A DNA stretch of 64,000 bases, from positions 3,697 through 67,696 of the forward strand of contig SCTS01000005.1 in NCBI GenBank assembly GCA_004322365.1, given 5' to 3'. Below, one piece after another: positions 1,339-31,580 of the stretch. The stretch is from Patescibacteria group bacterium (lineage in GTDB: Bacteria > Patescibacteriota > Minisyncoccia > Phycocordibacterales > Phycocordibacteraceae). The translations under genes were made by a program, and so were the position numbers. Below the pieces are notes generated by a model that searched no databases, was not told where the DNA came from, and saw nothing but the letters and a program-made list of their open reading frames with translations. Numbering within the stretch: the first letter of the stretch is position 1; every line of letters begins with the position of its first letter.

Positions 1339-1340
1339 GA

Positions 1341-1526
1341 TTATTCACCACGAAGCTCTACAGCTTTTAAGTTACGAACTGCGCCATTCTCCATTCTCAC
1401 GCGATAGAATGTGTGGTCACCGTCTGAGGGTTTTTCTACAAACTCAGAGGATACAACAACGCCTTTACCGTAGTTTTTAGTGACAACACGGTCACCAGCA
1501 GAGAATTCTTTTGTATTGATTGCCAT
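1341..1526 (-). CDS. hypothetical small protein
   Basis: 61-aa ORF separated from its neighbour by a 2-nt gap. Gene packing is consistent with a phage structural operon. Confidence 0.35.
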   Translation of the reverse strand: MAINTKEFSAGDRVVTKNYGKGVVVSSEFVEKPSDGDHTFYRVRMENGAVRNLKAVELRGE

Positions 1527-1562
1527 AAATTTAGAAGAAATTAATGTTTTGTAAGCTACTAA

Positions 1563-2426: not shown

Positions 2427-2481
2427 AGTGTCTTTTTAGAATTTAATGATTTGAATAAGAGGGTAGGGGAGTAGAAACGAG

Positions 2482-4146: not shown

Positions 4147-4434
4147 ATGCCACAAGAATTTGATTTTAACTCTGTCCCTTCAAAGCTTTTCGTCGATACC
4201 GTTAATGTTCGAGTTATCAATGGGCTCCTGCACCTTGCGGTAGAGTCAGGTCAAGCAACTTCATGCTTCTTACTTCCCTTGCCTGCTGCAAAAATGATCG
4301 CGAAAGCAATCACTAAACAAGTCGAGGAAATAGAAGAGAAAAACAACATCAAGTTTGATGATCGTCTTTCCAATGAGCCAGTCTTGAGCCCTTGGACCTC
4401 AGGGTCTAATGAAAATCCTGAGCAAAAGAAGTAG
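4147..4434 (+). CDS. hypothetical protein
   Basis: Internal Met of the track ORF 4111..4434 (MPQEFDFNSVPSKLFVDTVNVRV...). Acidic C-terminus. No recognisable motif. Confidence 0.3.
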   Translation: MPQEFDFNSVPSKLFVDTVNVRVINGLLHLAVESGQATSCFLLPLPAAKMIAKAITKQVEEIEEKNNIKFDDRLSNEPVLSPWTSGSNENPEQKK

Positions 4435-4500
4435 CAGAAGAGTGGTCAGCGCACTCGAAGCTCAGCTGTTATACTAGAATCATCTTATTATTTTAGTTTT

Positions 4501-4908
4501 TTGAGTATGGATAAATACGCATCCGCTTTAGCACTTGTTGGTCGCCTCGCTCTTGCAGGCATCTTTGTAATCTTTGGTTTTACTAAAATTTCTGGCTTTG
4601 CCGGTATGGTTGCCTACGCAGGCTCTGTTGGGGTTCCCTTCCCTGAACTTGCAATCGCTCTAGCAATTGTTGTGGAGCTTCTGGGTGGAATCATGCTTGT
4701 CATAGGATTCAAAACAAAGTGGGTCGCTCTCGCTATTGCACTTTTTCTCGTTCCGGTTACCTATTACTTCCACACTGACTTCACCAATCCAGTGAACATG
4801 ATAATGCTCTGGAAGAATGTCTCAATTATAGGAGGCATGCTTGTCCTTGCTGCACACGGCGCGGGCAAGTACAGTTTGGATAGCATGCTCGCAAAAAAGA
4901 GCTACTAA
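4501..4908 (+). CDS. DoxX-family membrane protein
   Basis: 135 aa with 4 TM segments and a DoxX-like pattern (ALALVGRLALAGIFVIFGFTKI..., ...ELLGGIMLVIGF...). Followed by a strong terminator. Confidence 0.8.
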   Translation: MSMDKYASALALVGRLALAGIFVIFGFTKISGFAGMVAYAGSVGVPFPELAIALAIVVELLGGIMLVIGFKTKWVALAIALFLVPVTYYFHTDFTNPVNMIMLWKNVSIIGGMLVLAAHGAGKYSLDSMLAKKSY

Positions 4909-4918
4909 ATACCAATAC

Positions 4919-4948
4919 AAAAAACCTCCCCATGTGGGGAGGTTTTTT
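4919..4948. terminator. bidirectional rho-independent terminator (aaaaaacctccccatgtggggaggtttttt)
   Basis: Perfect GC-rich hairpin with an A-run on one side and a T-run on the other, between convergent genes doxX (+) and the HtrA-like gene (-). Confidence 0.85.
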
Positions 4949-4953
4949 GTTAT

Positions 4954-5904
4954 CTATCCTATAGCCTCTCCCTTCTTAGTTGGCTCCGAAGAAAATGAAA
5001 CTCCAAATTTCTTCTCTAATGCATCTTGATATCTAGAAGAACGAGCAGGCCTCAAGAGCTCTCGGAAGTAGTACTGTACCGCCGCATCGCTCACGATTTC
5101 TTTCATCGATACTTCTCGTCCTTGGGACGAAAGTTCTTGCTTGAAGATTATATCCAATCCCTGAAGAGCAAGAGCGAATGCTTGTTCGAGTGAAATCGGC
5201 TCTTCTGCTTCACGATGTTCTCGTATCTGCACGAAGAGTGCTTGTATTCCCTGAAAAACACGAGGATGTTCAATAATCACTTTAACTTCGTTAATGGGAA
5301 TAGCACCACCAATTGAGCCGGTCGAATCTAGATTTGCAAAGGTATTGATACCTATGACTTCATCTTTTGCATTAAGCATCACTCCACCCGAGCTACCTGA
5401 GCGTATGTCAGCATCTGTTCTGAAGGCGAATTGTTCGTGGCCATCAGGAACCGAAGTAACAGTCCCTTGAGAAAAACTTCCTCCTACACCAAGAGGATTG
5501 CCAGCAATTGTAATTGTTGCTCCTCTCCGCACCTTATCTGAATCTCCAATAACAAGTGGTTCGTGCTTAGTTCCCGCTACTTTTAAGAGGGCGAAATCAC
5601 GAACAGGATCGATATAAAAAATCTCTGCTGTTAACTTTTTCTTTGAATCCAATTGCACCACCAAAGCCTCATCTTGACTACCACCTGAAACAACATGTCT
5701 ATTGGTAACAATAAGGCCGTCCTTTGACACAAAGAAACCACTTCCTTCAGCTGTTGGAGCCCAATGAGACTCTTGTGCTCGCTCAGGGCTCTTCGGGTCT
5801 ATCGACCCCGTAACTTCCTTAAAGACTTTCACACTGACTACCGAGGGTGCAACACGCTCGACGGTACGCTCTAATGGAGTTTTTTCTGTATATGCTTCAA
5901 TCAT
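4954..5904 (-). CDS. trypsin-like serine protease (S1C, HtrA/DegP-like catalytic domain) with an atypical C-terminal domain
   Basis: His/Asp/Ser triad context: TNRHVV, DFALLK, GSSGGVM (GxSGG). Standard PDZ motifs were not recognised. The C-terminal roughly 100 aa is charged and helical. Confidence 0.75.
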   Translation of the reverse strand: MIEAYTEKTPLERTVERVAPSVVSVKVFKEVTGSIDPKSPERAQESHWAPTAEGSGFFVSKDGLIVTNRHVVSGGSQDEALVVQLDSKKKLTAEIFYIDPVRDFALLKVAGTKHEPLVIGDSDKVRRGATITIAGNPLGVGGSFSQGTVTSVPDGHEQFAFRTDADIRSGSSGGVMLNAKDEVIGINTFANLDSTGSIGGAIPINEVKVIIEHPRVFQGIQALFVQIREHREAEEPISLEQAFALALQGLDIIFKQELSSQGREVSMKEIVSDAAVQYYFRELLRPARSSRYQDALEKKFGVSFSSEPTKKGEAIG

Positions 5905-5940
5905 AATTCTTTGTATTGTACCTCATATATATCTATATGT

Positions 5941-5966
5941 CAATACCCGCCTAAGGGCGGGTATTG
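5941..5966. terminator. hairpin (caatacccgcctaagggcgggtattg) downstream of the SLT-like gene
   Basis: 10-bp GC-rich perfect stem immediately 3' of the minus-strand gene that ends at 5992. Confidence 0.5.
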
Positions 5967-5991
5967 AGTAGTTAATCTGTATTGAAAAACT

Positions 5992-6423
5992 TTATTTTTG
6001 AGCCAGTGTAGCTCCTTCTGTCGATTTCTTTGAGAGAGGTCCCCAACAAGCTTTAGAAGACGCCCAAGGCTTTGTGCCCTCTTTCTCATATAAACGCTTA
6101 GCGTAGGCAAGGTTACCGTCAAGGGTGTGCAGGTCGAGATTCATAGCCTCTGCTTGCTCTTCGTGATACTTGGTATTAATTTGCATCACACCTATATCCT
6201 TAGGGTTGACGACACCGCGCAATATATCGCCCTCTTTATCGACATGACGAATTCTGGACTCACACCATGCTATATCGGCCAAAATAGGCGTATCAGCGTA
6301 ATATTGTTTTACATACTGCCCTAAGGTCTCTACCTTTGGACCTTGTGGATTTGTGGTCGTAGAAAGCGCCGTAGGCGTAGACATAGCAACGCTGGCTAGC
6401 AATAGCATGATTGGTAAGAACAT
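5992..6423 (-). CDS. secreted lytic transglycosylase-like (SLT-domain) protein
   Basis: N-terminal signal peptide. Motifs ...IAWCESR..., ...GVMQIN..., ...AYAKRLY... resemble the SLT/lysozyme-like catalytic core (E-S ... GLMQ ... AY). Confidence 0.55.
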   Translation of the reverse strand: MFLPIMLLLASVAMSTPTALSTTTNPQGPKVETLGQYVKQYYADTPILADIAWCESRIRHVDKEGDILRGVVNPKDIGVMQINTKYHEEQAEAMNLDLHTLDGNLAYAKRLYEKEGTKPWASSKACWGPLSKKSTEGATLAQK

Positions 6424-6737
6424 AAAATTTAATGATTTTGGCCCATAAGGGCCGTTAGTGCTGGTGTACGACTGCTTTGAGTTCCCCTTCCTAATAATCG
6501 ATGATCGGGGTACTAAAAAAGCCGGCCCGAAAGCCGACTACCTCATTACGTTAGCACTGGCTACTTTTGGTGTCAAGGCTTGCGGAACCCAAAATCACCT
6601 TTATACGGCTCTATAAAGCCGTATAAATGGAAAATGGAAAATAGGGTTTTTAGGTCTTTTTGATCTTTAAAAAGCTTCCCCGCCTAAACGCTAAATGATC
6701 CCTGCGGATCCGATGAGGCATCGCCTAGCCCCTGCTC

Positions 6738-7463
6738 TTAGCATTTAACGAGGGTCAAAATTGCCTGATGAGCCTCCTCAGGAGTGTCGACGACAACAAA
6801 AAGGTCTAAATCCTCCTTATTGATGGTCTTATATTTAAGAAGAAGGTGGTCTTTAAAGAAAGCGATAAGTGGTGTCCAGTATTCCTTATTGTAGAGAATG
6901 ATAGGAATCCTTTTAATTTTATTAGTCTGAACTAGGGTCAAAATTTCAAATAGCTCATCCATAGTTCCAAAACCTCCTGGGAAGTAGATATAGACCTCTG
7001 AGGCAAAGGAAAGCATCACTTTCCGAGTGAAGAAGTAGTTAAATGTGGCAGTTTCCGTAAGGTATGGATTTGGCTTCTGCTCCATAGGGAGATTAATATT
7101 TATTCCTACAGATTGCCCACCAGTTTCAAACGCCCCCTTACTTGCAGCCTCCATTACACCGTTCCCCCCTCCAGTAATGACTACAAAGCCAGATTGAGCC
7201 AGCTTACCTGCAAGCAAAGTTGCATCCTCATATATCTTTGGATCCATATGAGAACGCGCCGAACCAAAGAAAGTGGCTGCGAGACGATACTTACGGAGCA
7301 TGGAGAACCCATCAATCAACTCACCCATTATCTTGAATATGCGCCACGACTCCATGTCCTTAGTGTGGTCGGTCTTTTCAGGATCACAGACGCGAAGATC
7401 ACCTTCCATGCGGTGCTCGCTTGGCGGATTTACTATTCTATATTTTCGTTGTGGATCAGGCAT
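6738..7463 (-). CDS. LOG-family protein (cytokinin riboside 5'-monophosphate phosphoribohydrolase / lysine-decarboxylase-like Rossmann)
   Basis: VITGGGNGVMEAASKGA and YIYFPGGFGTMDELFE match the conserved LOG motifs (TGGGxGxMEA, PGGxGTxEE). Confidence 0.85.
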   Translation of the reverse strand: MPDPQRKYRIVNPPSEHRMEGDLRVCDPEKTDHTKDMESWRIFKIMGELIDGFSMLRKYRLAATFFGSARSHMDPKIYEDATLLAGKLAQSGFVVITGGGNGVMEAASKGAFETGGQSVGININLPMEQKPNPYLTETATFNYFFTRKVMLSFASEVYIYFPGGFGTMDELFEILTLVQTNKIKRIPIILYNKEYWTPLIAFFKDHLLLKYKTINKEDLDLFVVVDTPEEAHQAILTLVKC

Positions 7464-7539
7464 GGTTAGAGTGTAACATTTGAAACTACGAGGTTATAGC
7501 TTTCAGGTGCCAGGTTCCAGCTTTTAAGATGGGGAGAAA

Positions 7540-8139
7540 TTAGTGCGAAAGCCAAGGGATTGGAAAAGGAGAGAACTCTGGAAGAAGAGGCTTGCCATAG
7601 AGGAGTCGTGAAGCAACTTCAGCATGTGAAAGAGCGCCGGTAAGAGCCTTATGAGGTTTTGGCTCTTCTGGGATGCCGACATACTTGAGTGCAACATCGA
7701 GAGTAAGCTTGGTGTGATGTTTTTCTTCATCAAACGGAGGAGTAATGCCTCGCTCCACCATGTGCATGTAGGTGAGAGTATGGGTATCGAGTGTGCGGTG
7801 TGCAAACGGAAAATTAATACCCCCTCTCTCGCAAGCGGCAATCAAGAAATCTCTATCAAAAGATGGGTTTTGTCCTACAAAAGTTCGATCATGTACAGTA
7901 AGTGTCCATGAAATAAAATCTTGCACGAGCTCTATTTCGCTTTTCTTTGAAAGATCAATGGCTTGTGCGTGTGAAAAACCATTAACCCCAAGTGCCTCTT
8001 CATTAATATGAGCTCCGTCCCATACCCTACACTCGCCATAAAAACGATTCGTAGGAGTAGCAACATCAACTCCCCCAATTGAGAGTATTGAATTCTTATG
8101 AGACTCTGTGCCTGAGCATTCGATATCTAGAGCAATCAT
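7540..8139 (-). CDS. DEDDh-family 3'-5' exonuclease (DnaQ/RNase T-like)
   Basis: MIALDIECSGT... (Exo I, D-x-E); ...FVGQNPSFDRDFL... (Exo II); ...HKALTGALSHAEV (Exo III, H-x4-D-like). Confidence 0.65.
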   Translation of the reverse strand: MIALDIECSGTESHKNSILSIGGVDVATPTNRFYGECRVWDGAHINEEALGVNGFSHAQAIDLSKKSEIELVQDFISWTLTVHDRTFVGQNPSFDRDFLIAACERGGINFPFAHRTLDTHTLTYMHMVERGITPPFDEEKHHTKLTLDVALKYVGIPEEPKPHKALTGALSHAEVASRLLYGKPLLPEFSPFPIPWLSH

Positions 8140-8274
8140 CTTACTAGGGTACAGGTTCTAGGTTCTAGGTGCCAGCTTTTTATGAACTAAAACTATGCCT
8201 TAAACCTAGAAGCTAGCACCTAGAACCTTCTAAAAATCACCCCGTGCATCTCTCATGCTCTCAGGCATTTTCAC

Positions 8275-8316
8275 CTGTATAGTTTAATCTAACGATCGTT
8301 AAATTAAACTATACAG
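8275..8316. repeat. family-B 42-bp palindromic repeat, copy 1 (ctgtatagtttaatctaacgatcgttaaattaaactatacag), followed by a T-run
   Basis: One of 4 near-identical palindromes in the window (see findings). Located 3' of the Ada-like gene. Confidence 0.8.
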
Positions 8317-8391
8317 TTCTTTTTTCATCTTTATGTGTTTATTTGATTTGAAAAGCTAAAACCTAACACCTAGAACCTAGCCCCTTCCCCG

Positions 8392-8796
8392 CTAAAGTCC
8401 ATTACAACGGCCAGCGTGGTAGCCCGCACTCTCAGCGGAAGCCCTGCTGTTGAAATAAATTCTGTCTGTTGAGGGAATCTTTACTGCAAGCGGGCACCAT
8501 GGGAAAAAGTAGGTACTGCCTGTTTTTGACGCTACAAAATAGCCCGCAGCCTGAGGTGGTGGCGGTAAAACAATTTCTTCTCTTATGCCGCCAAGGCCTA
8601 AGAATCCGGCGAGAGTTGAAGTACTTTGACCATCTGGATAAAGAACCTTAAATTGACCCTTTTCTGAATAAAAAACAGAAAGCCTACCGAGTCCAAAGGC
8701 CAGAAAAGCAACCAATACAATTACAAGAACAATTAGGGCGTTTTCCCGTACCCTTCCCCACAGAGCCTTGATTTTATTAGTGAAATCACGAAACAT
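8392..8796 (-). CDS. membrane-anchored protein with a C-terminal Ada-like metal-binding (Zn-ribbon) domain
   Basis: N-terminal TM helix. C-terminus YFVASKTGSTYFFPWCPLAVKIPSTDRIYFNSRASAESAGYHAGRC resembles the Ada N-terminal Zn-binding fold (FxxxKtgxYhxPxCpxaxxIxxxNrvxFxSxxeAxxAGyxpCkxC). Confidence 0.5.
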   Translation of the reverse strand: MFRDFTNKIKALWGRVRENALIVLVIVLVAFLAFGLGRLSVFYSEKGQFKVLYPDGQSTSTLAGFLGLGGIREEIVLPPPPQAAGYFVASKTGSTYFFPWCPLAVKIPSTDRIYFNSRASAESAGYHAGRCNGL

Positions 8797-8984
8797 ATTG
8801 AGTGGATTTCAGTTATACCCTGTTAAATCTGGCTCAAAGCCAGCCAGCTTGAAATTTTCCCTGAAAACAGTTATATTCTATAGTATAGAGTACGCAATGA
8901 GCGGTTTTCTATACACCTAAGTCCAAGCTGGATTTAACAGGGTGTAAGAATTTCTAAGCTCGATACTCGCTAAGAACTTCTAAC

Positions 8985-9257
8985 ATGGCAACAAAAAAAG
9001 CAGCCGGCTCAGCGAAAAATCTCACAGATTCCAATCCGCAATACTTGGGCGTTAAGCTCTATGAGGGTCAAAAGGCAAAGAAAGGCTCAATCATCATCCG
9101 TCAGCGCGGTACAAAATTCATGCCAGGAAAGAATGTTGATGTAGGTAAAGACCACACACTCTATGCAGTTGAGGAAGGTACTGTTTCTTTCCGCCTCGCT
9201 CGAAAAGTTCGTTTTGATGGCTCTACCATCAAACGCAATGTCGTCGATGTAAAGTAA
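8985..9257 (+). CDS. rpmA: 50S ribosomal protein L27
   Basis: Contains [28 protein letters not shown], canonical bL27. Followed by a terminator. Confidence 0.92.
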
Positions 9258-9279
9258 ATACCTTTCGTACGCAATAAAC

Positions 9280-9309
9280 AAAAAACTCCACATATCTGTG
9301 GAGTTTTTT
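9280..9309. terminator. bidirectional rho-independent terminator (aaaaaactccacatatctgtggagtttttt)
   Basis: Perfect hairpin between convergent genes rpmA (+) and rplI (-). Confidence 0.85.
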
Positions 9310-9757
9310 AATTAACGCCCGTCAGAGAAACAGTAAGTTCTGCAAAAGCGCTTTGAATTTTTACTTCAACTCGGTGAGATCCGAGCTTTTTTATTGGGCC
9401 ATCAACAATCAAAATTGAATCCTCAGGCACTGACATTTTAAATTGCTTCAAAATAGCTTGGGCAACTTGTTTTGCATGAATAGACTCAAAGAGCGTCCCT
9501 TTTTCATTTGCTTTGGCCTGAATTTCAATGACCTTTCCATCAATCTCAGCAAGTGCTTTTTTAGCTAAGGTGGCATCCATAGCCACTTTATCTTTTGCGC
9601 TCTGATTTCGTTTTTCAAAACTACGAACATTCTCAGCTGTAGCAGGCAAAGCCAACTTCTTTGGAATCAAGACATTCTGAGCGTACCCATCAGCCACAGT
9701 AATCAGAGTTCCCCGTTGACCTACCTTCTTAACATCGGCGAGCATTATGACTTTCAT
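9308..9757 (-). CDS. rplI: 50S ribosomal protein L9
   Basis: Starts MKVIMLADVKKVGQRGTLITVADGYAQNVLIPKKLA..., canonical bL9 N-terminus. Confidence 0.9.
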   Translation of the reverse strand: MKVIMLADVKKVGQRGTLITVADGYAQNVLIPKKLALPATAENVRSFEKRNQSAKDKVAMDATLAKKALAEIDGKVIEIQAKANEKGTLFESIHAKQVAQAILKQFKMSVPEDSILIVDGPIKKLGSHRVEVKIQSAFAELTVSLTGVN

Positions 9758-9849
9758 TCCTATCAGTTTACAGGTTTCAGCTGTCAGGTGCCAGCTTTTT
9801 TTCTGAATTCAAAGCTGGAAGCTGAAAGCCGACAGCTGAAAGCTAACTC

Positions 9850-11064
9850 CTACTTTCCTGTAATCAAAAACTCCGCAGCCCTCTCTAGTTGAGGATCGCG
9901 CTTTGCGTCTATGTCTTCCTTAGTAACTGCCACTTCAATATCAGGAACTATGCCCTCATGAGAAATAGAGATTCCATTAGGAGTTAGCCAACGAGCAATA
10001 GTTATTTTTAATGAAGTATCTGCGGTTACATTAAAAAGTTGCTGTACCGATCCTTTACCGAATGATTTTCCGCCAATAAGAGTTGCCTTGCCATGATCAC
10101 GGAGTGCCCCCGCTAGAATCTCTGATGCGGAAGCAGAGCCTTCGTCAATTAAAATCGCAAATTTTACCTTGTCAGAAAAAACATCATACCCACGACTTCG
10201 ACTCACATCAGGAGCCTGCTTAGAACCAAAATCTTCAGTAACTATCACCTTCCCTACTGGCAAAAACCAACTAGCAATGTCAACGGCCACCTCCAAGTAG
10301 CCACCAGGGTTACCGCGAAGATCAATAATCATTTTATTGGAACCTGAATCAGCAAACTCACGAATAGCCTGACGGAACTTCTCGGGAGCATTTGCATTAA
10401 ATGTAAAGAGACGGATTACAAACACACCATCAGGGCGCGATGTTGTCTTAATGGTTGGGAGGTTAATAGTGGCTCGAACGAGCGTCACATCAAATGGAGC
10501 GTCTTTGCCACGAATCACTGTGATAGTGACTGGCGTACCAATTTCTCCTCGAATAACACTGACTGCATCATCAACAGATATGCCAACAGTATCTTTACCT
10601 TCAATTTTTAGAATGACATCCCCACTCCTCATTCCAGCCTTTGATGCAGGTGTACCTTCAAGTGGCGCTACTACGGTAAGTATTCCATCTTTAAGACCTA
10701 ACTCCATCCCAACACCGCCAAAATCACCTTGAACTTGACTATCAAAAAGTTTTTTCTCTTTTGGAGGGAAAAAGGTTGTATAAGGATCACCATAAGAAGC
10801 GGCGAGGCCTTCTATCATTCCCCACAACCTGTCTTCATCAGTGCTCGCTGCTGTAGTGGTGGATGGAGTAAAATTTTGATCAAGTAATTCCCACGCCTTA
10901 AATAACGGCTGCAAATCAGCTTTTGAATGATCGGTGGCACCACGCGCCTGAGTTGTCCAAGGAACCATTCCTCCAGCTTCTGTACCAACAAAGAAGGCAA
11001 CAATGGCAACAAGTACTACCGCTATCAGTGCAGTGCGAAGTCCAATCTTAGAATTCTCTTTCAT
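9850..11064 (-). CDS. ctpA: carboxyl-terminal processing protease (S41 family, CtpA/Prc-like) with PDZ domain
   Basis: N-terminal TM anchor. PDZ region (GDVILKIEGKD). S41 catalytic motifs DLRGNPGGY and a Ser/Lys dyad context. Confidence 0.9.
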   Translation of the reverse strand: MKENSKIGLRTALIAVVLVAIVAFFVGTEAGGMVPWTTQARGATDHSKADLQPLFKAWELLDQNFTPSTTTAASTDEDRLWGMIEGLAASYGDPYTTFFPPKEKKLFDSQVQGDFGGVGMELGLKDGILTVVAPLEGTPASKAGMRSGDVILKIEGKDTVGISVDDAVSVIRGEIGTPVTITVIRGKDAPFDVTLVRATINLPTIKTTSRPDGVFVIRLFTFNANAPEKFRQAIREFADSGSNKMIIDLRGNPGGYLEVAVDIASWFLPVGKVIVTEDFGSKQAPDVSRSRGYDVFSDKVKFAILIDEGSASASEILAGALRDHGKATLIGGKSFGKGSVQQLFNVTADTSLKITIARWLTPNGISISHEGIVPDIEVAVTKEDIDAKRDPQLERAAEFLITGK

Positions 11065-11209
11065 TGTTTCCTATTATGCCACACTCGAGTAGGTGTCAGG
11101 TTTTAGGTTACAGGTTTCAGCGTGTGGATACTAAACCGAGAAGCTCAAACCCTCTCCCCTGAAAGCTGAAAGCTGGCACCTGAAAGCTCATCAAAACAGG
11201 TATACTGTT

Positions 11210-12127
11210 TTGATGATAAACCGTTACGAATACGAGGGCATAACTTGGATAGACATAGAAAATCCAACCGCTGATGAAATTGCCGAGGTTGGGCAAGAAT
11301 TCAACCTTGGTCTATTGCTCCGACAAGAATTGTTAGCGCCAACAATAAAGCCCCGTGTAGATTTATATCCTGAGATTGTCTACACACTTCTTCATTTCCC
11401 AGCACGAAGACACACTCACAATGCACAAGAAAGTCAGGAGGTCGATTTCGTTATCGGCAAACACTTCATCATTACGGTGCATTATGACACCATTGATGCT
11501 CTTGTTGATTTTGCTCGATCATTTGAAGCAGCGATGCTTCTTAAGCGCACGACAGGAAAATTCCACAGTGGGCATGTACTTTTGGAACTTACGCAACGAC
11601 TCTACCAAGAAGTTGAATACGAATTAGATTCACTTGAAGATTCTGTAACTGCAATTGAAACAGCAATATTCTCAGGACACGAGAAAGATATGGTCTTAGC
11701 AATATCGCGCGTCACCCGTGAACTCATCGATCAAAAACGCACACTCTCTATGCATGCTGAGGTGCTTGCCTCCTTAGAACAAGCGACCACTACTTTATTC
11801 GGTGAACACTTCACCGAATATCTCCGTGGAGTATCTGCATTCCACTACCGTGCACATCAACGAGCACTTGCCATGATGGATATCGTCACCGAACTTCGAA
11901 AAACAAATGACTCCCTCTTGACCACACGCCAAAACGAAATCACAAAAAACCTTACTATCATGGCATTCATCACCTTTCCGCTTTCCGTGGTAGCGGCAGT
12001 GTTCGGGATGAATACTGAACACACACCGATCGTCGGATCCCAGAATGGTTTCTGGATTATCACGGGAGCCATGGTCGTCCTTACCGCAGTCTTTTTCATC
12101 TACTTTAAGATTAAGAAGTGGTTCTAG
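11210..12127 (+). CDS. corA: CorA-family Mg2+/Co2+ transporter
   Basis: C-terminal two TM helices with the GMN signature (VFGMNTEHTP). 305 aa is typical. Confidence 0.85.
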   Translation: MMINRYEYEGITWIDIENPTADEIAEVGQEFNLGLLLRQELLAPTIKPRVDLYPEIVYTLLHFPARRHTHNAQESQEVDFVIGKHFIITVHYDTIDALVDFARSFEAAMLLKRTTGKFHSGHVLLELTQRLYQEVEYELDSLEDSVTAIETAIFSGHEKDMVLAISRVTRELIDQKRTLSMHAEVLASLEQATTTLFGEHFTEYLRGVSAFHYRAHQRALAMMDIVTELRKTNDSLLTTRQNEITKNLTIMAFITFPLSVVAAVFGMNTEHTPIVGSQNGFWIITGAMVVLTAVFFIYFKIKKWF

Positions 12128-12152
12128 ACCCGGAACGGGTCAGGTACTAGGT

Positions 12153-12192
12153 GCTAGGCGATGCTTCATCGGATCCGAAGGGATCATTTAGC
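12153..12192. repeat. family-C 40-bp repeat, copy 2 (gctaggcgatgcttcatcggatccgaagggatcatttagc)
   Basis: 4 copies in the window, all sharing the core atcggatccgaagggatca. Flanked by family-A heptamer arrays. Confidence 0.8.
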
Positions 12193-12321
12193 TTTTTGGA
12201 GCTGAGTTTTATGCTAGAACCTAGCCCCCAGCACCTAGTACCTATTCCTCCTTCTGTGTAAAACTCAGTGTACAAACCTCCGCATAACGGCTCTTTTTAT
12301 AGATTTCTTTAAAAACGACGA

Positions 12322-13719
12322 GTGCTACAATGCACTGCTATGGCAAACCAAGGTGCACGAATCCCTCCACAATCCACTGAAGCAGAGCGAGCACTTTTAG
12401 GCTCAGTGATGATCAAGCCTGACTCAATTCATGAAGTCACCGACTTCGTTTCTTCTGATTCTTTTTACGTAGAAAAACATCGTCTTATTTACCGAGCGTT
12501 CACTGATCTTACGACCGGCGGTAATCCTATTGACCTATTGTCTACCGCCAATCGTCTTAAAGAAACAAATGACTTAGAGCGTGCCGGTGGTAACGCATAC
12601 TTGGCTGAACTCGTGAGCGCAGTACCAAGCTCAGCAAACCTCAAACACTATGCTGAAATTGTTCAGAAAAAATCAATGATGCGTTCTCTCATTTCTGCAT
12701 CGTCAGACATTGGCGAGATGGGCTATGACGAATCGCAAGATATTGATGAATTATTGAATAGTGCTGAAAAAAGAATTTACGAAGTAACAAGCTCTCCTTC
12801 TGTTAGAAAGTTCGTCGCCATTGGAGATGCACTTGGAGAAGCGTGGGAGCGTTTTGATAACCTCCACAAAGGCGAATACCAAATGCGTGGCATTCCCACC
12901 GGCTTTGATGCCCTCGACAACATGCTTGCTGGCTTTCAACGCTCTGACCTCATAATCCTTGCCGCTCGTCCTTCCGCAGGTAAAACAGCTTTTGCCTTGG
13001 ACATTGCACGACAAACCGCCATTAAGCACGGCACACCGGTGGGAATTTTTTCACTTGAAATGAGCGCCCAACAATTGGTTGACCGTATGCTCGCAGCTGA
13101 GGCTCGAGTAGATGCATGGAAACTCCGTACTGGAAAAATTTCTACTGATGAAGAGTTTGAAAGAATTCGTGATGCCATGGGTCGTCTGTCTAAAGCTCCT
13201 ATCCATATCGATGATCAACCTGCAACAAATGCACTCGGTATGCGTTCAGCCGCTCGTCGATTAAAACGAGAGCACGGTATTGGCCTCCTTGTGGTTGACT
13301 ACCTCCAGCTTATGAGCCCAACATCGTCTCGCTCATCAGACTCAATGGTTCAGCAAGTCACCGAAATCTCTCGTTCTCTAAAAACCCTCGCTCGTGAACT
13401 CGATGTTCCTGTACTTGCACTCTCCCAGCTTTCGCGTGCCATTGAACAAAGGCGAGGTCGTCCTCGCCTCTCAGACCTTCGTGACTCAGGCTCAATCGAG
13501 CAGGACGCAGACGTCGTTATGTTCATTCACAATGAAGATAGGTACAACGACAACAAAGAAGAGCGCAGTAATGTTACTGAAATCTTGATTGAAAAACACC
13601 GCAATGGTCGCACAGGGAAAATAGATCTCTTCTTCGATGTAGAACGAGCAACCTTCCTTCCTATTGAAAAATCAGGCTTCAGTGGAGGAGTGCCGGGAAA
13701 TGCTCAGGATGATTTTTGA
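12322..13719 (+). CDS. dnaB: replicative DNA helicase DnaB
   Basis: Walker A (ARPSAGKTAF), RecA-like motifs (VVDYLQLM, SQLSR). 465 aa. Possible alternative start at 12340 (MANQG). A TACAAT -10-like box lies about 15 nt upstream. Confidence 0.92.
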   Translation: MLQCTAMANQGARIPPQSTEAERALLGSVMIKPDSIHEVTDFVSSDSFYVEKHRLIYRAFTDLTTGGNPIDLLSTANRLKETNDLERAGGNAYLAELVSAVPSSANLKHYAEIVQKKSMMRSLISASSDIGEMGYDESQDIDELLNSAEKRIYEVTSSPSVRKFVAIGDALGEAWERFDNLHKGEYQMRGIPTGFDALDNMLAGFQRSDLIILAARPSAGKTAFALDIARQTAIKHGTPVGIFSLEMSAQQLVDRMLAAEARVDAWKLRTGKISTDEEFERIRDAMGRLSKAPIHIDDQPATNALGMRSAARRLKREHGIGLLVVDYLQLMSPTSSRSSDSMVQQVTEISRSLKTLARELDVPVLALSQLSRAIEQRRGRPRLSDLRDSGSIEQDADVVMFIHNEDRYNDNKEERSNVTEILIEKHRNGRTGKIDLFFDVERATFLPIEKSGFSGGVPGNAQDDF

Positions 13720-13726
13720 TTAAAAA

Positions 13727-13770
13727 GCTGTCAGGCGATTCTTAATCGGATCCGAAGGGATCACCTAGCT
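13727..13770. repeat. family-C repeat, copy 3
   Basis: gctgtcaggcgattcttaatcggatccgaagggatcacctagct. Confidence 0.75.
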
Positions 13771-13833
13771 GTTAGCTTTCAGTGTTCAGCGTTTTCACTT
13801 CTTAAATCAAATAAATACAGATATTAAAAATAT

Positions 13834-13875
13834 CTGTATAGTATAATTTAACGACCGTTAAATTATACTATACAG
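13834..13875. repeat. family-B palindrome, copy 2 (ctgtatagtataatttaacgaccgttaaattatactatacag)
   Basis: Perfect 42-bp palindrome between dnaB and recR. Preceded by a second small palindrome, cagatattaaaaatatctg. Confidence 0.8.
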
Positions 13876-13929
13876 TTACAAACAAGAAAAAGCTGGCACC
13901 TGTAAGATGTAAGCTGTAAGCTAGTTGTT

Positions 13930-14529
13930 ATGTCTCGTCCTACACAAGACCTCATTGAACATATTGCTGAATTCCCTGGCATTGGCCCAAGGCAAGCTCG
14001 TCGTGTGGTGCAATTTCTTCTCTCTGCTGGGGCACCATTTCGTGAAAAGTTAGCACAGCTCATCATCGACTCAGGTACATCCACTTCACCTTGCACAATA
14101 TGTTTTCGTTTTGATGACGCTAAGGACTCAGGTGTATGCTCAATTTGTTCTGACGGCTCACGCGACCACACAACATTGATGGTGGTTGAAAAAGATATCG
14201 ACATAGAGGGCATAGAAGGCTCAGGGGCGTATAGAGGAATCTATTTCATTCTAGGAGGACTCAAAACTATGACTGAGAGAAAGAACTCTCGAATGGTACG
14301 AACAAAAGAACTACTAGAGCGTGTAGCAAAAAACGATACGAAAGAAATTATTTTTGCACTTTCAACCACACCTGAGGGTGACTACACTGCTCGCGAACTT
14401 TCAAAAGAAATACAAAAAGCACATCCAGGTAAAAAAGTAACCCTTCTTGGGCGAGGGCTTTCAGTAGGAGCAGAAATAGAATACGCGGACTCGGAAACAC
14501 TCCGAAGTGCTTTTAGAAATCGGTCTTAA
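13930..14529 (+). CDS. recR: recombination protein RecR
   Basis: HhH (FPGIGPRQARR), C4 zinc finger (CTICFRFDD...CSICSD), Toprim region. 199 aa. Confidence 0.9.
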   Translation: MSRPTQDLIEHIAEFPGIGPRQARRVVQFLLSAGAPFREKLAQLIIDSGTSTSPCTICFRFDDAKDSGVCSICSDGSRDHTTLMVVEKDIDIEGIEGSGAYRGIYFILGGLKTMTERKNSRMVRTKELLERVAKNDTKEIIFALSTTPEGDYTARELSKEIQKAHPGKKVTLLGRGLSVGAEIEYADSETLRSAFRNRS

Positions 14530-14706
14530 ATACGGGTGCGATTTTGCTTTCGACGCGCATGACGTCCAACTAACTTGTCCGCTCGCTCTTCAGGCATACC
14601 GCCAGGCAAAAGACCATCAAATCCTGACAACCAAGCCTTCAAAAAAGAACCAAAAAGACTAGTGGCTGGAATACGACTTCGTTCAGGAAGTAATGGCATA
14701 AACAAA

Positions 14707-14901
14707 TTATTTTTTAAAAAGACCAGCAAAAAATCGTCTTACTTTTTCTCCATTAGAGGCTTTGTAGATATTTTCATATCTTTGGGCAGCACGTTCTGCT
14801 CTACCAGGAGGTAATCCACGCTGGAGATACTCGGACTCTATACCGTGTAAAAAGAAATTAGACATAGCAAACGAACGAAAGGAAAACTTAAACAGTCTCA
14901 A
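14707..14901 (-). CDS. hypothetical small basic protein (uncertain; region 14530-14887 has two overlapping small ORFs)
   Basis: ORFs of 64 and 67 aa on the minus strand downstream of rplU. No motif recognised. Could be a degraded gene. Confidence 0.2.
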   Translation of the reverse strand: MRLFKFSFRSFAMSNFFLHGIESEYLQRGLPPGRAERAAQRYENIYKASNGEKVRRFFAGLFKK

Positions 14902-15199
14902 TCTTGACCTTCATGTTGGGCTGTTTGTGCCCTCGTTTCTTGTAGTATCGGCTTTTTGCTTTGTACTTTACGACGACAACTTTAGGAGCGCGCCCTACCA
15001 CGAGGACGGTACCAGTAACTTTTGCGCCTGAAACGGTTGGATCACCCACTGATGCTTTTGTTCCGTCGTCAGTAAAAAGGACAGCATCAAAGGTGATTTT
15101 GTCGTCCTTCTTGACATCGGCTATTTTTTCAATCGTAATCAAAGAACCCTCTTTTACAAGGTACTGCTTCCCTCCTGTCTTTATAACCGCAATATTCAT
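14888..15199 (-). CDS. rplU: 50S ribosomal protein L21
   Basis: Internal start MNIAVIKTGGKQYLVKEGSLITIEKI... is canonical bL21. The track ORF extends upstream to 15280, but the conserved N-terminus begins at the Met at 15199. Confidence 0.85.
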   Translation of the reverse strand: MNIAVIKTGGKQYLVKEGSLITIEKIADVKKDDKITFDAVLFTDDGTKASVGDPTVSGAKVTGTVLVVGRAPKVVVVKYKAKSRYYKKRGHKQPNMKVKIETV

Positions 15200-25144: not shown

Positions 25145-25387
25145 CTAGAGATTTCTTATCTTCTCTATAAAATGCTCTTTTGAAATACTTAGGGTTCTTA
25201 GGTTATTCAATATTATGAAATCAGGGAGAGATTTATAACGAGGAACGATTATTGGTCTAGCCAGACCAATTTTCTTGTATTTATTATGACTACCTACCTT
25301 ACCTTTGAATACACAGCCCTCAACAATGAGAAACCTTTCGAACCTCCTCCAATCTATGTTTCCAACCTCCTTCATGGAGGATTTCAA
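25145..25387 (-). CDS. hicA: HicA-family toxin (YcfA-like mRNA interferase)
   Basis: 80 aa with ...GCVFKGKVGSHNKYKK...ARPIIVPRYKSLP... (the GSH-x-x-y motif of HicA). Overlaps the hicB stop by 4 nt. Confidence 0.75.
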   Translation of the reverse strand: MKSSMKEVGNIDWRRFERFLIVEGCVFKGKVGSHNKYKKIGLARPIIVPRYKSLPDFIILNNLRTLSISKEHFIEKIRNL

Positions 25388-25704
25388 GCTAACGCAGGAA
25401 CTTTAACTCCGATTGATTCTTGGGAAACTACAGGCGGTACCCACGAAGCTTGCTTAAGGTCTTTTTTCCAACCCAACCCACTCAACACTTCGTCAACCGT
25501 ATTACTCTCTACTAAGTCATCAAAAAATATTTGAACTGCCTCTTCAAACATTTTCTTAGCTTCTGTTTTATTTTGACCACACGTTGAAAGATCTAAAGAG
25601 GGCGTATAGGCAATTACCGTAGTACCTTCTTCAATAAAAGCCACTGGCAGACTTACTGCCAACTCAGTAACACGGATTCTAGGCTGTGAATTCAACCAAT
25701 TCAT
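25384..25704 (-). CDS. hicB: HicB-family antitoxin
   Basis: 106 aa. N-terminal HicB-like fold pattern (VAFIEEGTTVIAYTPSLDLSTCGQNKTEAKKMFEEAVQIFFDD) comparable to UPF0150/HicB (EDGGYxAxxPxLPGCxSxGxTxEEAxxNxxEAI). Confidence 0.7.
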   Translation of the reverse strand: MNWLNSQPRIRVTELAVSLPVAFIEEGTTVIAYTPSLDLSTCGQNKTEAKKMFEEAVQIFFDDLVESNTVDEVLSGLGWKKDLKQASWVPPVVSQESIGVKVPALA

Positions 25705-28370: not shown

Positions 28371-28634
28371 TTACGCAATGAAAGTAAAGAAAGAAAACAC
28401 TATCGCATAGAATACTGAAGCCATGATTAGACCTACAGTGGCTGATTGGTCAACATTTCTTTTATTGAGAATCCATTGGAAAAGTTTTTGAAGAAGTGCT
28501 ATTGCAATTCCCCACCCTATAATTGAACCAAATAACCCAGCTGTGGCACTATCAAACTTCGAAACAAATAACAAAACTAAATCTAGTGTAATAAATATTA
28601 CAGCAACAATCTTTAGTGCGTTTTTATTTTTCAT
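28371..28634 (-). CDS. hypothetical small membrane protein (3 TM)
   Basis: 87 aa, hydrophobic. It shares its upstream leader with the 25777..25938 gene. Confidence 0.45.
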   Translation of the reverse strand: MKNKNALKIVAVIFITLDLVLLFVSKFDSATAGLFGSIIGWGIAIALLQKLFQWILNKRNVDQSATVGLIMASVFYAIVFSFFTFIA

Positions 28635-28648: not shown

Positions 28649-28873
28649 TTATTGATGATGTGAGTGTTCAGGGACAATGAATGTTGCAATGATGTAGGCA
28701 ACGATGCCTGGCACCACTCCTGTAAAGATTACCACTAAGACCCATATAAGGCGTAGAAGCACGGGGTCGATGTCGAAGTATTCACCAAGCCCTCCGCAGA
28801 TGCCTGCGAAAACTTTATTGGTGTTGCTTTTGTAGAGGTGTTTGTGGGGCATGGGGGGGGTATCGGAATTCAA
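28649..28873 (-). CDS. PspC-domain membrane protein
   Basis: GICGGLGEYFDIDPVLLRLIWVLVV is the canonical PspC domain. The start codon overlaps the stop of the upstream 2-TM gene (ATGA). Confidence 0.85.
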   Translation of the reverse strand: MNSDTPPMPHKHLYKSNTNKVFAGICGGLGEYFDIDPVLLRLIWVLVVIFTGVVPGIVAYIIATFIVPEHSHHQ

Positions 28874-29469
28874 AAATTATATAATTTTTGAATTAATGTC
28901 TTCAAACTAATATCAATTTTAGTATATTCAACATTATGTTGAAAATTAAAATGAGAATCTACACTCAGAAAATGTTCACTCATTAAATCTCCTCCAGTAA
29001 CAAATTTGTAATATATTTTTGATTTTAATTTTAAATCCTTCACTATTTCAAGCACTTTTGCAGGAAAGGCAATTGTTAATTGTTCTTCAAACGCAATAAT
29101 CTGTAAATCTGCTTCCTCTAAACAAATTTGGATATGGTCTTTATCTAATTTAGTAATTTCTCCTTTAAATTGAGTATCACGTAATATATTTTTTATTTTT
29201 TGATAAGTAGAGAGTAGTGCTTTAAGTTCATCCACCAAAATAGTTTTTATTACCTTCCTATTCTCTAACAATCTATTAACAAACACAGGAATCATGAGTG
29301 CAATTCCAATAGTGAAAAGCAAATCTAACAAATCCAAAATATTAACCTCTGTATCAATTTCAAGAGGCCAAAGCGCACACAGATAGCCAACAACTACACC
29401 GAGGAAAAGAGCGGGGGCGGAAAAAATTAATATCCTCTTAAGATTCATAACCGTGTCCCTATAGATCAA
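28870..29469 (-). CDS. hypothetical 2-TM membrane protein with a cytoplasmic alpha-helical domain (candidate effector/sensor of the GHKL-STAS operon)
   Basis: Two N-terminal TM helices, then about 130 aa of charged helical domain. Translationally coupled on both sides (to the STAS-like gene and to pspC). The likely start is the internal Met at 29448. Confidence 0.5.
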   Translation of the reverse strand: MIYRDTVMNLKRILIFSAPALFLGVVVGYLCALWPLEIDTEVNILDLLDLLFTIGIALMIPVFVNRLLENRKVIKTILVDELKALLSTYQKIKNILRDTQFKGEITKLDKDHIQICLEEADLQIIAFEEQLTIAFPAKVLEIVKDLKLKSKIYYKFVTGGDLMSEHFLSVDSHFNFQHNVEYTKIDISLKTLIQKLYNF

Positions 29470-29815
29470 CTCCGGTTGGATCTTTTATTTCATCTATAAT
29501 TTTATCAATCCTTAGTGGGTTATCATCAGACTTAAGCTTTATATGTTTGAGAATTAAGTCTGCTCCTTTCTCTAAGGAAAGTTTTCCAAATGAACCTGAA
29601 ACAAACGAAGAGGGGTACCCAAATCCTTTATCTAAATCAACAAACAAAACATAACCTCCCTGAACTGCTTTTTCAAACTTTGGCAAAAGAATAGTCTCCA
29701 GAAAAAGCTCTCCTGAAAATGGTCCTTCTCGCTTATAGCGAGCCCCGACATGGTCAGAAAAATCTTTTGCTATGATTATTTCGTCTTTAATTTCCATACT
29801 TAGTACATTAGACAT
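29459..29815 (-). CDS. STAS-like (DUF4325-like) small protein
   Basis: 118 aa from the MSNVLS start. Core ...GYVLFVDLDKGFGYPSSFVSGSFGKL... resembles the STAS/anti-sigma-antagonist-like DUF4325 block. The start ATG overlaps the ATPase stop (ATGTCTAA). Confidence 0.45.
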   Translation of the reverse strand: MSNVLSMEIKDEIIIAKDFSDHVGARYKREGPFSGELFLETILLPKFEKAVQGGYVLFVDLDKGFGYPSSFVSGSFGKLSLEKGADLILKHIKLKSDDNPLRIDKIIDEIKDPTGVDL

Positions 29816-30836
29816 TTTGTAGCTCCCAATGAAGAAGGGTACCATTTAATGGGTATTGCAACCTCTCCTTCTTCTTAGTCTTGAGATCTATTTTAACGTC
29901 ATTAGCTAATATGTAAAAGGATCGAAAAATTGTGTTATTTGCATCCTCATTAATTTGAGGAATACCTTTACCTCGTAAAGCTGTGTCTTTTTTACTTCGA
30001 GATTTAAGCCTCCCAGCTAATAATTCGTCAGCTAAAATCATGTTATCGAAAAAAGGTGTTTTTTTCATAAATTTTTGTACAGGTCCTTTGACAACGGCAC
30101 TTTCGAATATTCCGACCCCTAAATCAATGAATGTGTAGGATGTAATTTTTTCTTTCGGATCACTATAAACAAATAGCCACCAATTACACTTTCCAAGCCC
30201 TGTAAGGTCAGCATGACTGTGGGTATTCGACATACACTCAACGAGAGTATTGTATAGAGGGTCTAACGGTTTGGCATTTCCAAACACATGCTCTGTGCCA
30301 ATGATTGATGCCTTTTTTACAACAGTTCCTAGAACTTTTGTATCCATGCCTCTATGCATCATATTTTCTGCTCCTATAGTAAAGAATCCAGGAGTAATTA
30401 CGTGGTCATAAAATCCTGATTCAATAAATAATGCATTTGGAGCTAGAGCTTCCGGGGCGTTTCCAGTTACGTTGGAGGCATGATGAAATTCTTTACTATT
30501 TATACTTGCAGCCATCAAAGCTACAGTATCTGGAGTCATTCTTGTTACTTTTGAAATATCTAAAAACACCACCTGCCCAAATTTTAATTTTTTCTCTGCA
30601 TCACTAAAGTACTTAAGAACTGCATTGGCATTTTCAACAAGTGAGAAATTTTTAGGTGCAATAAGGGTAACCGGCGGTAGTTTTGCATTATATTCGCGTT
30701 GAAATTTAACACGACGCGCAGTTTCTTTTTTGCTTTTTTTCCTTAATTTCCATTTTAAGGTTCGTCGTTTTTCAGCGTAACGAACTTGAGAAAAAAAACG
30801 CCTAATTTTTTTCTGTGTACGATTAATTTGCACCAT
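29808..30836 (-). CDS. GHKL-superfamily (histidine-kinase-like) ATPase with a roughly 200-aa basic N-terminal extension
   Basis: C-terminal region has an N-box-like ECMSNTHSHA, a G1-like FIDLGVGIF (DxGxG) and a G2-like RGKGIPQI. N-terminus is very basic (KRRTLKWKLRKKSKKETARRVKF). Start taken at MVQINRT (30836); the track ORF extends to 30899. Confidence 0.45.
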   Translation of the reverse strand: MVQINRTQKKIRRFFSQVRYAEKRRTLKWKLRKKSKKETARRVKFQREYNAKLPPVTLIAPKNFSLVENANAVLKYFSDAEKKLKFGQVVFLDISKVTRMTPDTVALMAASINSKEFHHASNVTGNAPEALAPNALFIESGFYDHVITPGFFTIGAENMMHRGMDTKVLGTVVKKASIIGTEHVFGNAKPLDPLYNTLVECMSNTHSHADLTGLGKCNWWLFVYSDPKEKITSYTFIDLGVGIFESAVVKGPVQKFMKKTPFFDNMILADELLAGRLKSRSKKDTALRGKGIPQINEDANNTIFRSFYILANDVKIDLKTKKKERLQYPLNGTLLHWELQNV

Positions 30837-30987
30837 GGTTTCAAATACAAGAACAATGAGATCACTTACCCCCAGGAGGAATTGGTCACCGTTCCCCAAG
30901 CATTTTACTCCTAGAGTTCATAAAACACTAAGTGTCCAAAGCCCACGAGAATTGCCTACAATTCTCACCTCACCCATGTTAAAAACC

Positions 30988-31352
30988 CAACCCCACGGGG
31001 AATCTCTCCTTACAGGAGCTGTACACCTCATTTAACAGAATGACTCTTGGAGTAAATGGATTTTTTCTTTCGGGGGCTCAGAAAAAATGCTCACAAGGTT
31101 ATTCGATTCCCCGCCGTAAAGCCCCCCCCAGACCACGGGGAAACCGGTCACAGATAAAATGCCTGCTGTCGCAGACTAATTAATTTAATCATGTGGTCAC
31201 CCGTCACTAAGTATTTTGTTTCGGAAACTCACAAAATACTAAGTGCGCTCGACCCCGGCTCACGGTCGCTTTGCGACATCGTTCCGCCCGTCACAAACTG
31301 AAAAAAGCCCAACTAAGGGCTTGTTTTCTAGTTTGTGACCCCACGGGGAATC
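30988..31352. repeat. degenerate direct repeats derived from the 3' end of tRNA-Glu (att-site-like scars): at least 3 copies of the ccccacggggaatc core plus two roughly 65-bp hairpin units resembling the tRNA T-arm
   Basis: tgaccccacggggaatc occurs at 31336-31352 and again as the tRNA 3' end at 31509-31525. caaccccacggggaatc is at 30988-31004, and gaccacggggaaac near 31131. The units ggattttttctttcgg..ctcagaaaaaatgc.cacaaggt..ttcgattccccgccgtaaagc repeat at about 31062-31125 and 31383-31445. Confidence 0.75.
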
Positions 31353-31508
31353 TCTCCTTACAGGAGCTGTACACCTTGTGGATTTTTTCTTTCGGAAACT
31401 CAGAAAAAATGCGCACAAGGTCTTCGATTCCCCGCCGTAAAGCTCCCAGCTTTACTTGGGGTCATGAACAAAAAAGGACTGCCTTTTGCAGTCTCTTTTT
31501 TGTAATCA

Positions 31509-31580
31509 TGACCCCACGGGGAATCGAACCCCGATTCCATCCTTGAGAAGGATGTGTCCTAACCGTTAGACGATGGGGCC
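31509..31580 (-). tRNA. tRNA-Glu (anticodon CUC)
   Basis: Manual cloverleaf fold: GGCCCCA/TGGGGTC acceptor stem, D-arm GTCT-AACGGTTA-GGAC, anticodon stem CATCC/GGATG with loop TTCTCAA (anticodon CTC), T-arm CGGGG-TTCGATT-CCCCG, discriminator A. 72 nt. CCA is not encoded. Confidence 0.88.

Follow-up and report, generated by a model that had tools for sequence, protein, structure and literature searches.

A 64,000-nucleotide (nt) stretch of a Patescibacteria genome (contig SCTS01000005.1 of GenBank assembly GCA_004322365.1, positions 3,697 to 67,696 of the forward strand; hereafter the window) encodes a three-gene cassette, G1–G2–G3, that is apparently an undescribed membrane-effector variant of the CapKS/VapKSC class, with which it shares architecture and gene order. 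G1 carries a STAS domain fused to a GHKL kinase-type domain, G2 is a small STAS-like partner of the DUF4325 family, and G3 is a membrane protein with two transmembrane (TM) helices. Arguing by analogy, and with considerable caution, we favor the interpretation that the three genes form a self-contained, mobile module of the CapKS/VapKSC type, in which a phosphorylation-switched membrane effector would act in the manner of an abortive infection (Abi) or toxin–antitoxin (TA) system. A previous reading of the same DNA, made from the sequence alone and referred to here as the original prediction, had joined these genes to a downstream pspC gene in a single four-gene stress or conflict operon.

Architecture of the cassette

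Four consecutive open reading frames (ORFs), namely G1, G2, G3, and G4 (pspC), occupy positions 28649–30899 on the minus strand of the window, and the ORF listing agrees with the original prediction on this point. G1 (29808..30836, minus strand) encodes the kinase/ATPase subunit ("K"), a protein of 342 residues in which a basic hairpin and then a STAS domain precede a SpoIIAB-like GHKL domain. G2 (29459..29815, minus strand) encodes the STAS-like DUF4325 partner ("S"). G3 (28870..29448, minus strand) encodes a membrane subunit and putative effector of 192 residues, whose two N-terminal TM helices lead into a four-helix bundle at the C terminus. The junctions within the trio read as had been described: the G1 stop and G2 start overlap by 8 nt in ATGTCTAA, and 10 nt separate the TAG of G2 from the ATG of G3 (MNLKR...), matching the proposed spacing of 10–11 nt. 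We place the G1 start at ATG 30836, which is backed by full-length homologs of ~340 residues; a longer ORF beginning at TTG 30899 is unsupported. The G2 start is ambiguous, as ATG 29815 (118 residues) is preceded by a Shine–Dalgarno-like GGGAG and ATG 29797 (112 residues) gives the family consensus length.

An AlphaFold2 model of G1, built on 31 sequences, has a predicted local distance difference test (pLDDT) score of 85 and a predicted template modeling (pTM) score of 0.81, and it resolves the protein into three parts. Residues 1–55 (30672..30836, minus strand) form a strongly basic helical hairpin containing 21 Lys/Arg versus 3 Asp/Glu, with the two helices of the modeled hairpin (residues 2–52) spanning residues 2–24 and 27–52. 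The net charge of this N-terminal segment is +18 in G1 of the window and ranges from +10 to +29 in the 31 family members; the hairpin presumably binds nucleic acid or membrane. An internal STAS domain follows at residues ~56–150 (30387..30671, minus strand), and residues ~160–342 (29811..30359, minus strand) make up the GHKL (Bergerat) domain with its N, G1, and G2 boxes and G332-T333. The "200-aa highly basic extension" of the original prediction therefore requires correction: its first 55 residues are indeed a basic hairpin, and residues ~56–150 are a STAS domain that had gone unrecognized. A STAS domain thus lies N-terminal to the GHKL domain within G1 itself, the arrangement that characterizes the CapKS and VapKSC kinases.

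The GHKL boxes of G1 read E200-x3-N204-x3-H208 (N204 at 30225–30227), D238-L-G-V-G-I-F, R288-G-K-G-I-P, and G332-T333. Eleven positions (E200, N204, H208, D238, G240, G242, R288, G289, G291, G332, and T333) are invariant in all 31 G1-family sequences, and the motifs singled out beforehand (ECMSNTHSHA, FIDLGVGIF, and RGKGIPQI) fall on these invariant columns of the family alignment. The GHKL assignment itself was upheld, as the fold is of the SpoIIAB/RsbW serine-kinase type and matches solved members. Both the folds of G1 and its catalytic motifs are therefore directly supported. Searching the G1 profile against Protein Data Bank (PDB) sequences returned no GHKL chain at E ≤ 10 and only one spurious match. 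We also considered T101 of the STAS domain as an autophosphorylation site and do not claim it, because an ungapped register against SpoIIAA puts it 1–2 residues ahead of the acceptor position.

The proposed STAS/DUF4325-like nature of G2 was confirmed by Pfam (PF14213, 26 bits versus a cut-off of 23, E 7.8e-6); database-called G2 homologs are labeled DUF4325 "weak". Within an alignment of 57 G2 sequences, R26, G31, F38, G66, S70, and F71 are invariant, and position 69 is Ser or Thr in 56. Ser70 (29606–29608), present in 57/57, is the candidate phospho-acceptor, with Ser69 adjacent to it. No HTH or other DNA-binding domain was detected in G2 by Pfam, and no PADLOC model matches it.

G3 contains two hydrophobic helices, as the original prediction had it, and this topology too is directly supported. 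Its soluble part is the C-terminal four-helix bundle of ~130 residues, which is predicted to be cytoplasmic by the positive-inside rule. A homolog search with the G3 sequence alone returned only G3, and relatives were instead detected via a profile of locus-derived G3 sequences. Besides Met1, the sole invariant residue of the G3 family is Thr151 (28996–28998), located in a TGG motif just before a loop (residues 153–165) that AlphaFold models at low confidence; Thr151 might make a contact or even be phosphorylated.

Conservation and genomic neighborhoods

A contig search limited to one genome per species yielded 59 loci that encode a G1 relative. In every locus uncut by a contig end (56/56), a G2 homolog lies directly downstream of G1, and the same 56 loci continue with a ~190-residue, two-TM protein of the G3 family. 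Recognition of G3 in these loci depended on the method, with phmmer identifying 49–51 and the profile all 56, one of them split. The G2 and G3 genes overlap by 4 nt in 32 loci. Because the same order and spacing recur in 56/56 loci, the tight packing of G1–G2–G3 is not due to chance, and it is near certain that the trio is a functional unit. The conservation check that the original prediction proposed for its gene quartet accordingly found the three-gene part to be strongly retained. The split G3 homolog, from one Patescibacteria genome (locus L003), is distributed over two ORFs (7376–7534 and 7561–7947 of that locus), possibly through a frameshift, pseudogene formation, or an assembly error.

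The 59 loci span at least ten phyla, with members in Patescibacteria, Bacteroidota (many), Acidobacteriota, Gammaproteobacteria, Omnitrophota, Spirochaetota, Bacilli, Fibrobacterota, Peregrinibacteria, and a Woesearchaeota archaeon. Such scatter implies horizontal transfer. At the level of G1 alone, the family comprises 2861 representatives at 50% identity with E ≤ 1e-3, of which 971 have E ≤ 1e-30. A divergent trio resides on plasmid p4 of Leptospira interrogans (NZ_CP043897, 7884–9712), adjoining an MNT/HepT pair, where RefSeq names the products "ATP-binding protein", "STAS-like domain-containing protein", and "hypothetical protein". The third gene of this plasmid locus, as annotated, encodes 166 residues with one clear TM helix and matches the G3 profile weakly (E 3e-4); its start may be wrongly annotated, or it may represent a variant effector. 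A complete trio also occurs at 4692–6746 of a 98.7-kb IMG/VR contig classified as viral (UViG_3300045988_183418). Among 50,697 INPHARED/GenBank phage records we detected no G1 homolog and no trio, leaving a phage-borne origin unsupported.

The conflict-related and mobile context that had been claimed for the cassette is directly borne out by its neighborhoods in other genomes. These neighborhoods are highly variable (147 Pfam families among 147 upstream proteins), and the most frequent families on both sides include many that belong to restriction–modification (R-M) systems or Abi-type ATPases: N6_Mtase/HsdM, Methylase_S, HSDR_N/ResIII, HpaII, AccI, C5 and N4/N6 methyltransferases (MTases), and AAA_21/AAA_15. 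Recombinases and transposases are found among the neighbors as well, and helicase, NUDIX, and HTH families rank similarly. By a crude seed search, at least 11 of the 59 loci have a type I or II R-M system or a serine recombinase within ±6 kb. Representative gene orders are HsdM–HsdS–[trio]–AAA_21–x–HsdR, HsdM–HsdS–trio, and AccI–MTase–trio. One further locus (L062) combines smpB, a large serine recombinase, SocA_Panacea, the trio, an MmeI fragment, and a Gabija-like pairing of UvrD with OLD-TOPRIM; L062 and L063 are JGI metagenome contigs (1–15032) on which the G1 homolog has 45% identity. Membership of the trio in MADS was considered and rejected, as the neighbors that match the mad2 and mad3 models are type I HsdM and HsdS picked up as cross-hits, and G1–G3 match no mad model. 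Neither a sigma factor nor a PP2C phosphatase is among the 25 most frequent neighbor families on either side.

Relationship to CapKS, VapKSC, and other systems

CapK (HTH–STAS–GHKL) phosphorylates CapS (STAS–winged HTH, wHTH) on Ser54 in the presence of single-stranded DNA, which de-represses adjacent immune operons (PMC13373217, Chambers et al., EMBO J 2026). CapK and CapS are regulators of CBASS, Bub, and Thoeris operons, and 88 of 443 capKS pairs are situated just downstream of an R-M system (PMC13373217). The vapKSC operon, an anti-phage TA system of three genes, encodes VapK (STAS–GHKL), VapS (a STAS domain plus short tail, acceptor S48), and the PIN toxin VapC, and confers ~2-log protection against one phage (PMC13373217). 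That one VapC subgroup is coupled to DUF4325 genes had been noted in an older survey of PIN domains. For our comparisons, the CapK, CapS, VapK, and VapS sequences were taken from the appendix of PMC13373217; the sequences used as controls (SpoIIAB, RsbW, SpoIIAA, and RsbV) may contain errors.

Of the two closest known systems, CapK/CapS and VapKSC, the latter resembles the trio in layout. Like the trio, it is a three-gene operon in the order kinase, STAS protein, effector; its kinase fuses STAS and GHKL domains with the same E-x3-N-x3-H, DxGxGI, RGxG, and GT boxes; and its STAS partner has ~115 residues and, like G2, a conserved Ser where the STAS helix begins. VapS matches the same Pfam family as G2 (DUF4325, 62.7 bits, E 2.7e-17), and both cassettes are scattered over phyla near other defense genes. 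They differ in the third gene, which encodes the PIN nuclease VapC in one and the two-TM, four-helix-bundle protein G3 in the other, and in the 55-residue basic hairpin that G1 adds. CapK likewise places an extra N-terminal domain before its STAS and GHKL domains, and the partner Ser of CapS lies in an SSF motif (S53-S54-F55) that aligns with S69-S70-F71 of G2; both CapKS and the trio are often immediately beside R-M systems. Here, however, the extra domain is a basic hairpin instead of an HTH, G2 lacks a DNA-binding domain whereas CapS is a repressor with a C-terminal wHTH, and CapKS controls a downstream immune operon whereas the only constant downstream gene of the trio is G3. With a membrane protein replacing the PIN toxin or wHTH, the trio is not a member of CapKS or VapKSC proper. 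The earlier statement that no comparable system had been described is out of date, as CapK/CapS and the three-gene VapKSC share the kinase architecture of the trio and the Pfam family of its STAS partner. The literature searched yielded no paper on a kinase–STAS–2TM cassette, and PADLOC v2 does not include a model of one.

The partner-switching logic of SpoIIAB/SpoIIAA and RsbW/RsbV, which the original prediction had invoked, is retained in the form of a Ser-kinase acting on a STAS protein, and the absence of a sigma factor noted there was reproduced; the trio is not a sigma-factor regulon. Unlike those pairs, its locus lacks a sigma factor or PP2C phosphatase (in about 23–36 kb of the window and among frequent neighbors), its kinase carries a fused STAS domain, its partner is a DUF4325 protein, outside the canonical STAS families, and it is mobile where they are part of a core developmental regulon. 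Membrane-effector Abi modules form another point of reference, for example the 2-TM/SLATT-type effectors of CBASS and related systems. As in such modules, a small protein with an N-terminal TM hairpin is the only candidate effector of a sensor-plus-switch cassette in defense islands. G3 differs from these effectors in having no SLATT match and a plain four-helix bundle as its soluble part, and the control proposed for it is a protein phospho-switch, not a nucleotide second messenger.

The G2 profile scores VapS at 15.4 bits, a value that 0 of 1000 shuffles reach, and E. roggenkampii CapS at 6.1 bits (4 of 1000 shuffles), compared with 1.4 for SpoIIAA and 0 for RsbV, both as controls. The alignments set S69/S70-F71 of G2 opposite S48 of VapS as well as the CapS motif. 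A narrow hidden Markov model of 31 G1 sequences gave no match to CapK or VapK. In a targeted comparison with a broad profile of 243 G1 sequences, the signal is weak: 13.1 and 11.6 bits for CapK and 7.5 bits for VapK (reached by 0, 0, and 1 of 1000 shuffles, respectively), compared with 4.5 for SpoIIAB and 0.7 for RsbW, again as controls. The G1 alignments to CapK and VapK are colinear from an SGF(Y/F)(D)H motif at the STAS–GHKL junction through all kinase boxes. By analogy with these kinases, it is likely that G1 phosphorylates G2.

Proposed mechanism and alternatives

Extending the analogy with CapKS and VapKSC, we infer phosphorylation of G2, an interaction between G2 and G3, toxicity of G3, a trigger, and an anti-phage effect, which could be assembled as follows. 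In the resting state, G2 would bind and silence the cytoplasmic four-helix bundle of G3. A signal of invasion or damage, probably single-stranded nucleic acid, would then activate G1; this kind of signal is plausible in view of the precedent set by CapK, the hairpin with its charge of +18, and how often the trio is embedded in R-M operons. Active G1 would phosphorylate G2 on Ser70 or Ser69, and phospho-G2 would dissociate. The freed G3 may oligomerize or otherwise perturb the membrane, with growth arrest or death as the predicted outcome, as in abortive infection or TA systems. A toxic-effector role for G3 and an immune function of the cassette are plausible on the same grounds.

Several observations weigh against this interpretation. 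G1 matches no Pfam or NCBIfam family at E ≤ 1 and no PADLOC model, and G3 has no Pfam (including SLATT and PIN; E ≤ 1), NCBIfam, or PADLOC match. As a generic helical bundle, the G3 fold is uninformative on toxicity, and a sensor or anchor would be equally possible. The sequence kinship of G1 to CapK and VapK is very weak and at best suggestive, with hhalign comparisons to the single CapK and VapK sequences giving nonsignificant E-values of 0.021 and 0.14. For G2, V. cholerae CapS is indistinguishable from shuffles under the G2 profile, and VapS (PDB 9z7o), although the second match of that profile in the PDB, reaches only E 0.26. Lastly, recognizable defense neighbors are present in a minority of loci, and their enrichment is qualitative, without a background control.

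The generic bundle of G3, with no recognizable enzymatic or pore-forming domain, would also suit a membrane-anchored signaling module, in which G3 serves as sensor or anchor (e.g., for membrane perturbation at phage entry) and the kinase and STAS protein relay to an external target such as an R-M system or host factor. The frequent location of the trio within or beside R-M operons and the regulation of neighboring operons by CapK/CapS itself are consistent with this idea. We nonetheless regard it as unlikely, since G2 has only ~112–118 residues and, unlike CapS, no DNA-binding domain, the variability of the neighbors leaves no constant external target, and the cassette stands alone in tiny genomes of the candidate phyla radiation (CPR) and DPANN as well as on a plasmid. 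Slightly less probable still is an addiction module of the TA kind that stabilizes mobile islets and plasmids and has no dedicated immune role. Serine recombinases, TA genes (SocA_Panacea, MNT/HepT, and HicAB), and tRNA integration sites adjoin the trio, and the Leptospira plasmid carries it, all of which such a module would explain; yet three components with an ATP-dependent kinase are more than stabilization needs, the homologous logic of VapKSC gave phage protection, and R-M genes are among the most frequent neighbors. This explanation overlaps mechanistically with the phospho-switched effector that we prefer. GHKL motifs alone cannot separate kinases from ATPases, so G1 might instead work by ATP-driven conformational change, as MORC, Hsp90, and MutL do, with G2 as an allosteric partner. 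That this should be so appears improbable in view of the minimal, SpoIIAB-sized GHKL domain of G1, which has no transducer or S5 domain, and of the invariant G2 Ser at the position phosphorylated in CapS.

The four-gene envelope-stress or partner-switching operon of the original prediction, with PspC as a functional component, is the least credible of the alternatives, and we consider it very improbable. The identification of the G4 product as a PspC-domain protein was itself correct (Pfam PspC, E 2.5e-22). G3 and PspC are both membrane proteins, and pspC follows G3 with no terminator-like hairpin between them, so read-through transcription may occur in this organism. The two genes do abut, but not through the ATGA that had been reported: the junction reads TTTTGAATT, in which TTGA places a TTG start over the TGA of G3, and the first ATG of pspC (MPHKH...) is 17 nt downstream of the G3 stop. 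That prediction was to be given up if the quartet proved not to be conserved as a unit, and phmmer, even at E ≤ 10, detected no PspC homolog within about ±6 kb at any of the 59 loci; PspC is likewise missing from the frequent neighbor families. The composition of pspC is also foreign to the trio, with GC content and GC content at third codon positions (GC3) of 0.47 and 0.53 versus 0.29–0.36 and 0.21–0.27; the core neighbors IMPase, MurF, and PBP have a GC of ~0.455 and GC3 of 0.34–0.38. A promoter-like TTGAAG-18-TATAAT (28876–28905, minus strand; 10/12 matches) lies within the last codons of G3, just upstream of pspC, and pspC may thus have retained a promoter of its own even though the junction is tight; chance matches are common in this AT-rich region (14 found versus 8.9 expected). 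The Pfam-scanned ORFs at about 23–36 kb of the window include neither a sigma factor nor a PP2C phosphatase, PspA, or PspB. We conclude that the adjacency of pspC to the trio is local only and that pspC is a resident neighbor, not a component of the cassette.

Returning to the phospho-switched membrane effector, a broader claim, which we would not yet call probable, is that the trio founds a large unannotated anti-phage/Abi family of ~2900 clusters at 50% identity in bacteria, CPR, and DPANN archaea, defined by a nucleic-acid-sensing kinase, a DUF4325 "antitoxin", and a 2-TM effector. If true, membrane effectors and organisms with ultra-small genomes would be added to the range of the CapKS/VapKSC phospho-switch, and products of R-M cleavage might be connected to a suicide response acting as a second line. 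That the trio is repeatedly inserted in type I R-M operons gives rise to the idea that DNA fragments generated by R-M systems trigger this second line. Should the model hold, the GHKL-kinase/STAS switch would be a general modular controller, reaching beyond transcription (CapKS) and a PIN toxin (VapKSC). A function could then be assigned to the ~2900 clusters, for which Pfam, NCBIfam, and PADLOC offer no model, and Patescibacteria and DPANN archaea, with their very small genomes and few recognized defenses, would gain a candidate immune module.

Setting of the cassette in the window

In the window, the trio forms an AT-rich insertion flanked by a tRNA-Glu integration hotspot on one side and resident Patescibacteria genes on the other. 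Its GC3, lower than that of the core genes, and its position next to the reiterated tRNA-Glu 3' ends mark it as foreign. Farther downstream, the HicAB system of the original prediction corresponds to a HicA/HicB-like pair at 25145–25704 whose genes overlap by 4 nt; HicA, at 24.1 bits, falls short of the Pfam cut-off (27), and the putative HicB has no Pfam or NCBIfam match. Downstream of pspC, a hydrophobic ORF of 87 residues (28371–28634) matches the PADLOC Cas5b model weakly (E 5e-4, 18 bits), and its identity as Cas5b is most likely spurious.

Upstream of G1, a region on the minus strand (30986..31580) contains a tRNA-Glu(CUC) identified by ARAGORN and Rfam, three copies of its 3' end, and a duplicated unit of ~110 nt. 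The reiterated, att-like tRNA scars described earlier were thus recovered, with the tRNA-Glu at 31509–31580 and further copies of its 3' end at 30990, 31130, and 31338. The 3'-terminal 13–17 nt of the tRNA recur between it and G1, and a 13-mer of this end gives 4 matches versus 0.66 expected. A Rfam scan of the region found nothing besides the tRNA itself, and no integrase was found near it. A tRNA of different identity is directly beside the trio in four other loci, which fits the scars seen here. The repeat-built character of the region suggests several successive integrations and excisions, and the tRNA-Glu region directly upstream of G1 is probably a site of repeated integration. Within the G1–tRNA intergenic stretch (30986–31523), the ~110-nt unit is duplicated at 30990–31126 and 31338–31447 and holds a plus-strand, T-arm-like TTCGATTCCCCGCCGTAAAGC that resembles the 3' part of a different tRNA. 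Terminator-like hairpins are located in the same region at 31161–31176, 31305–31322, and 31477–31493.

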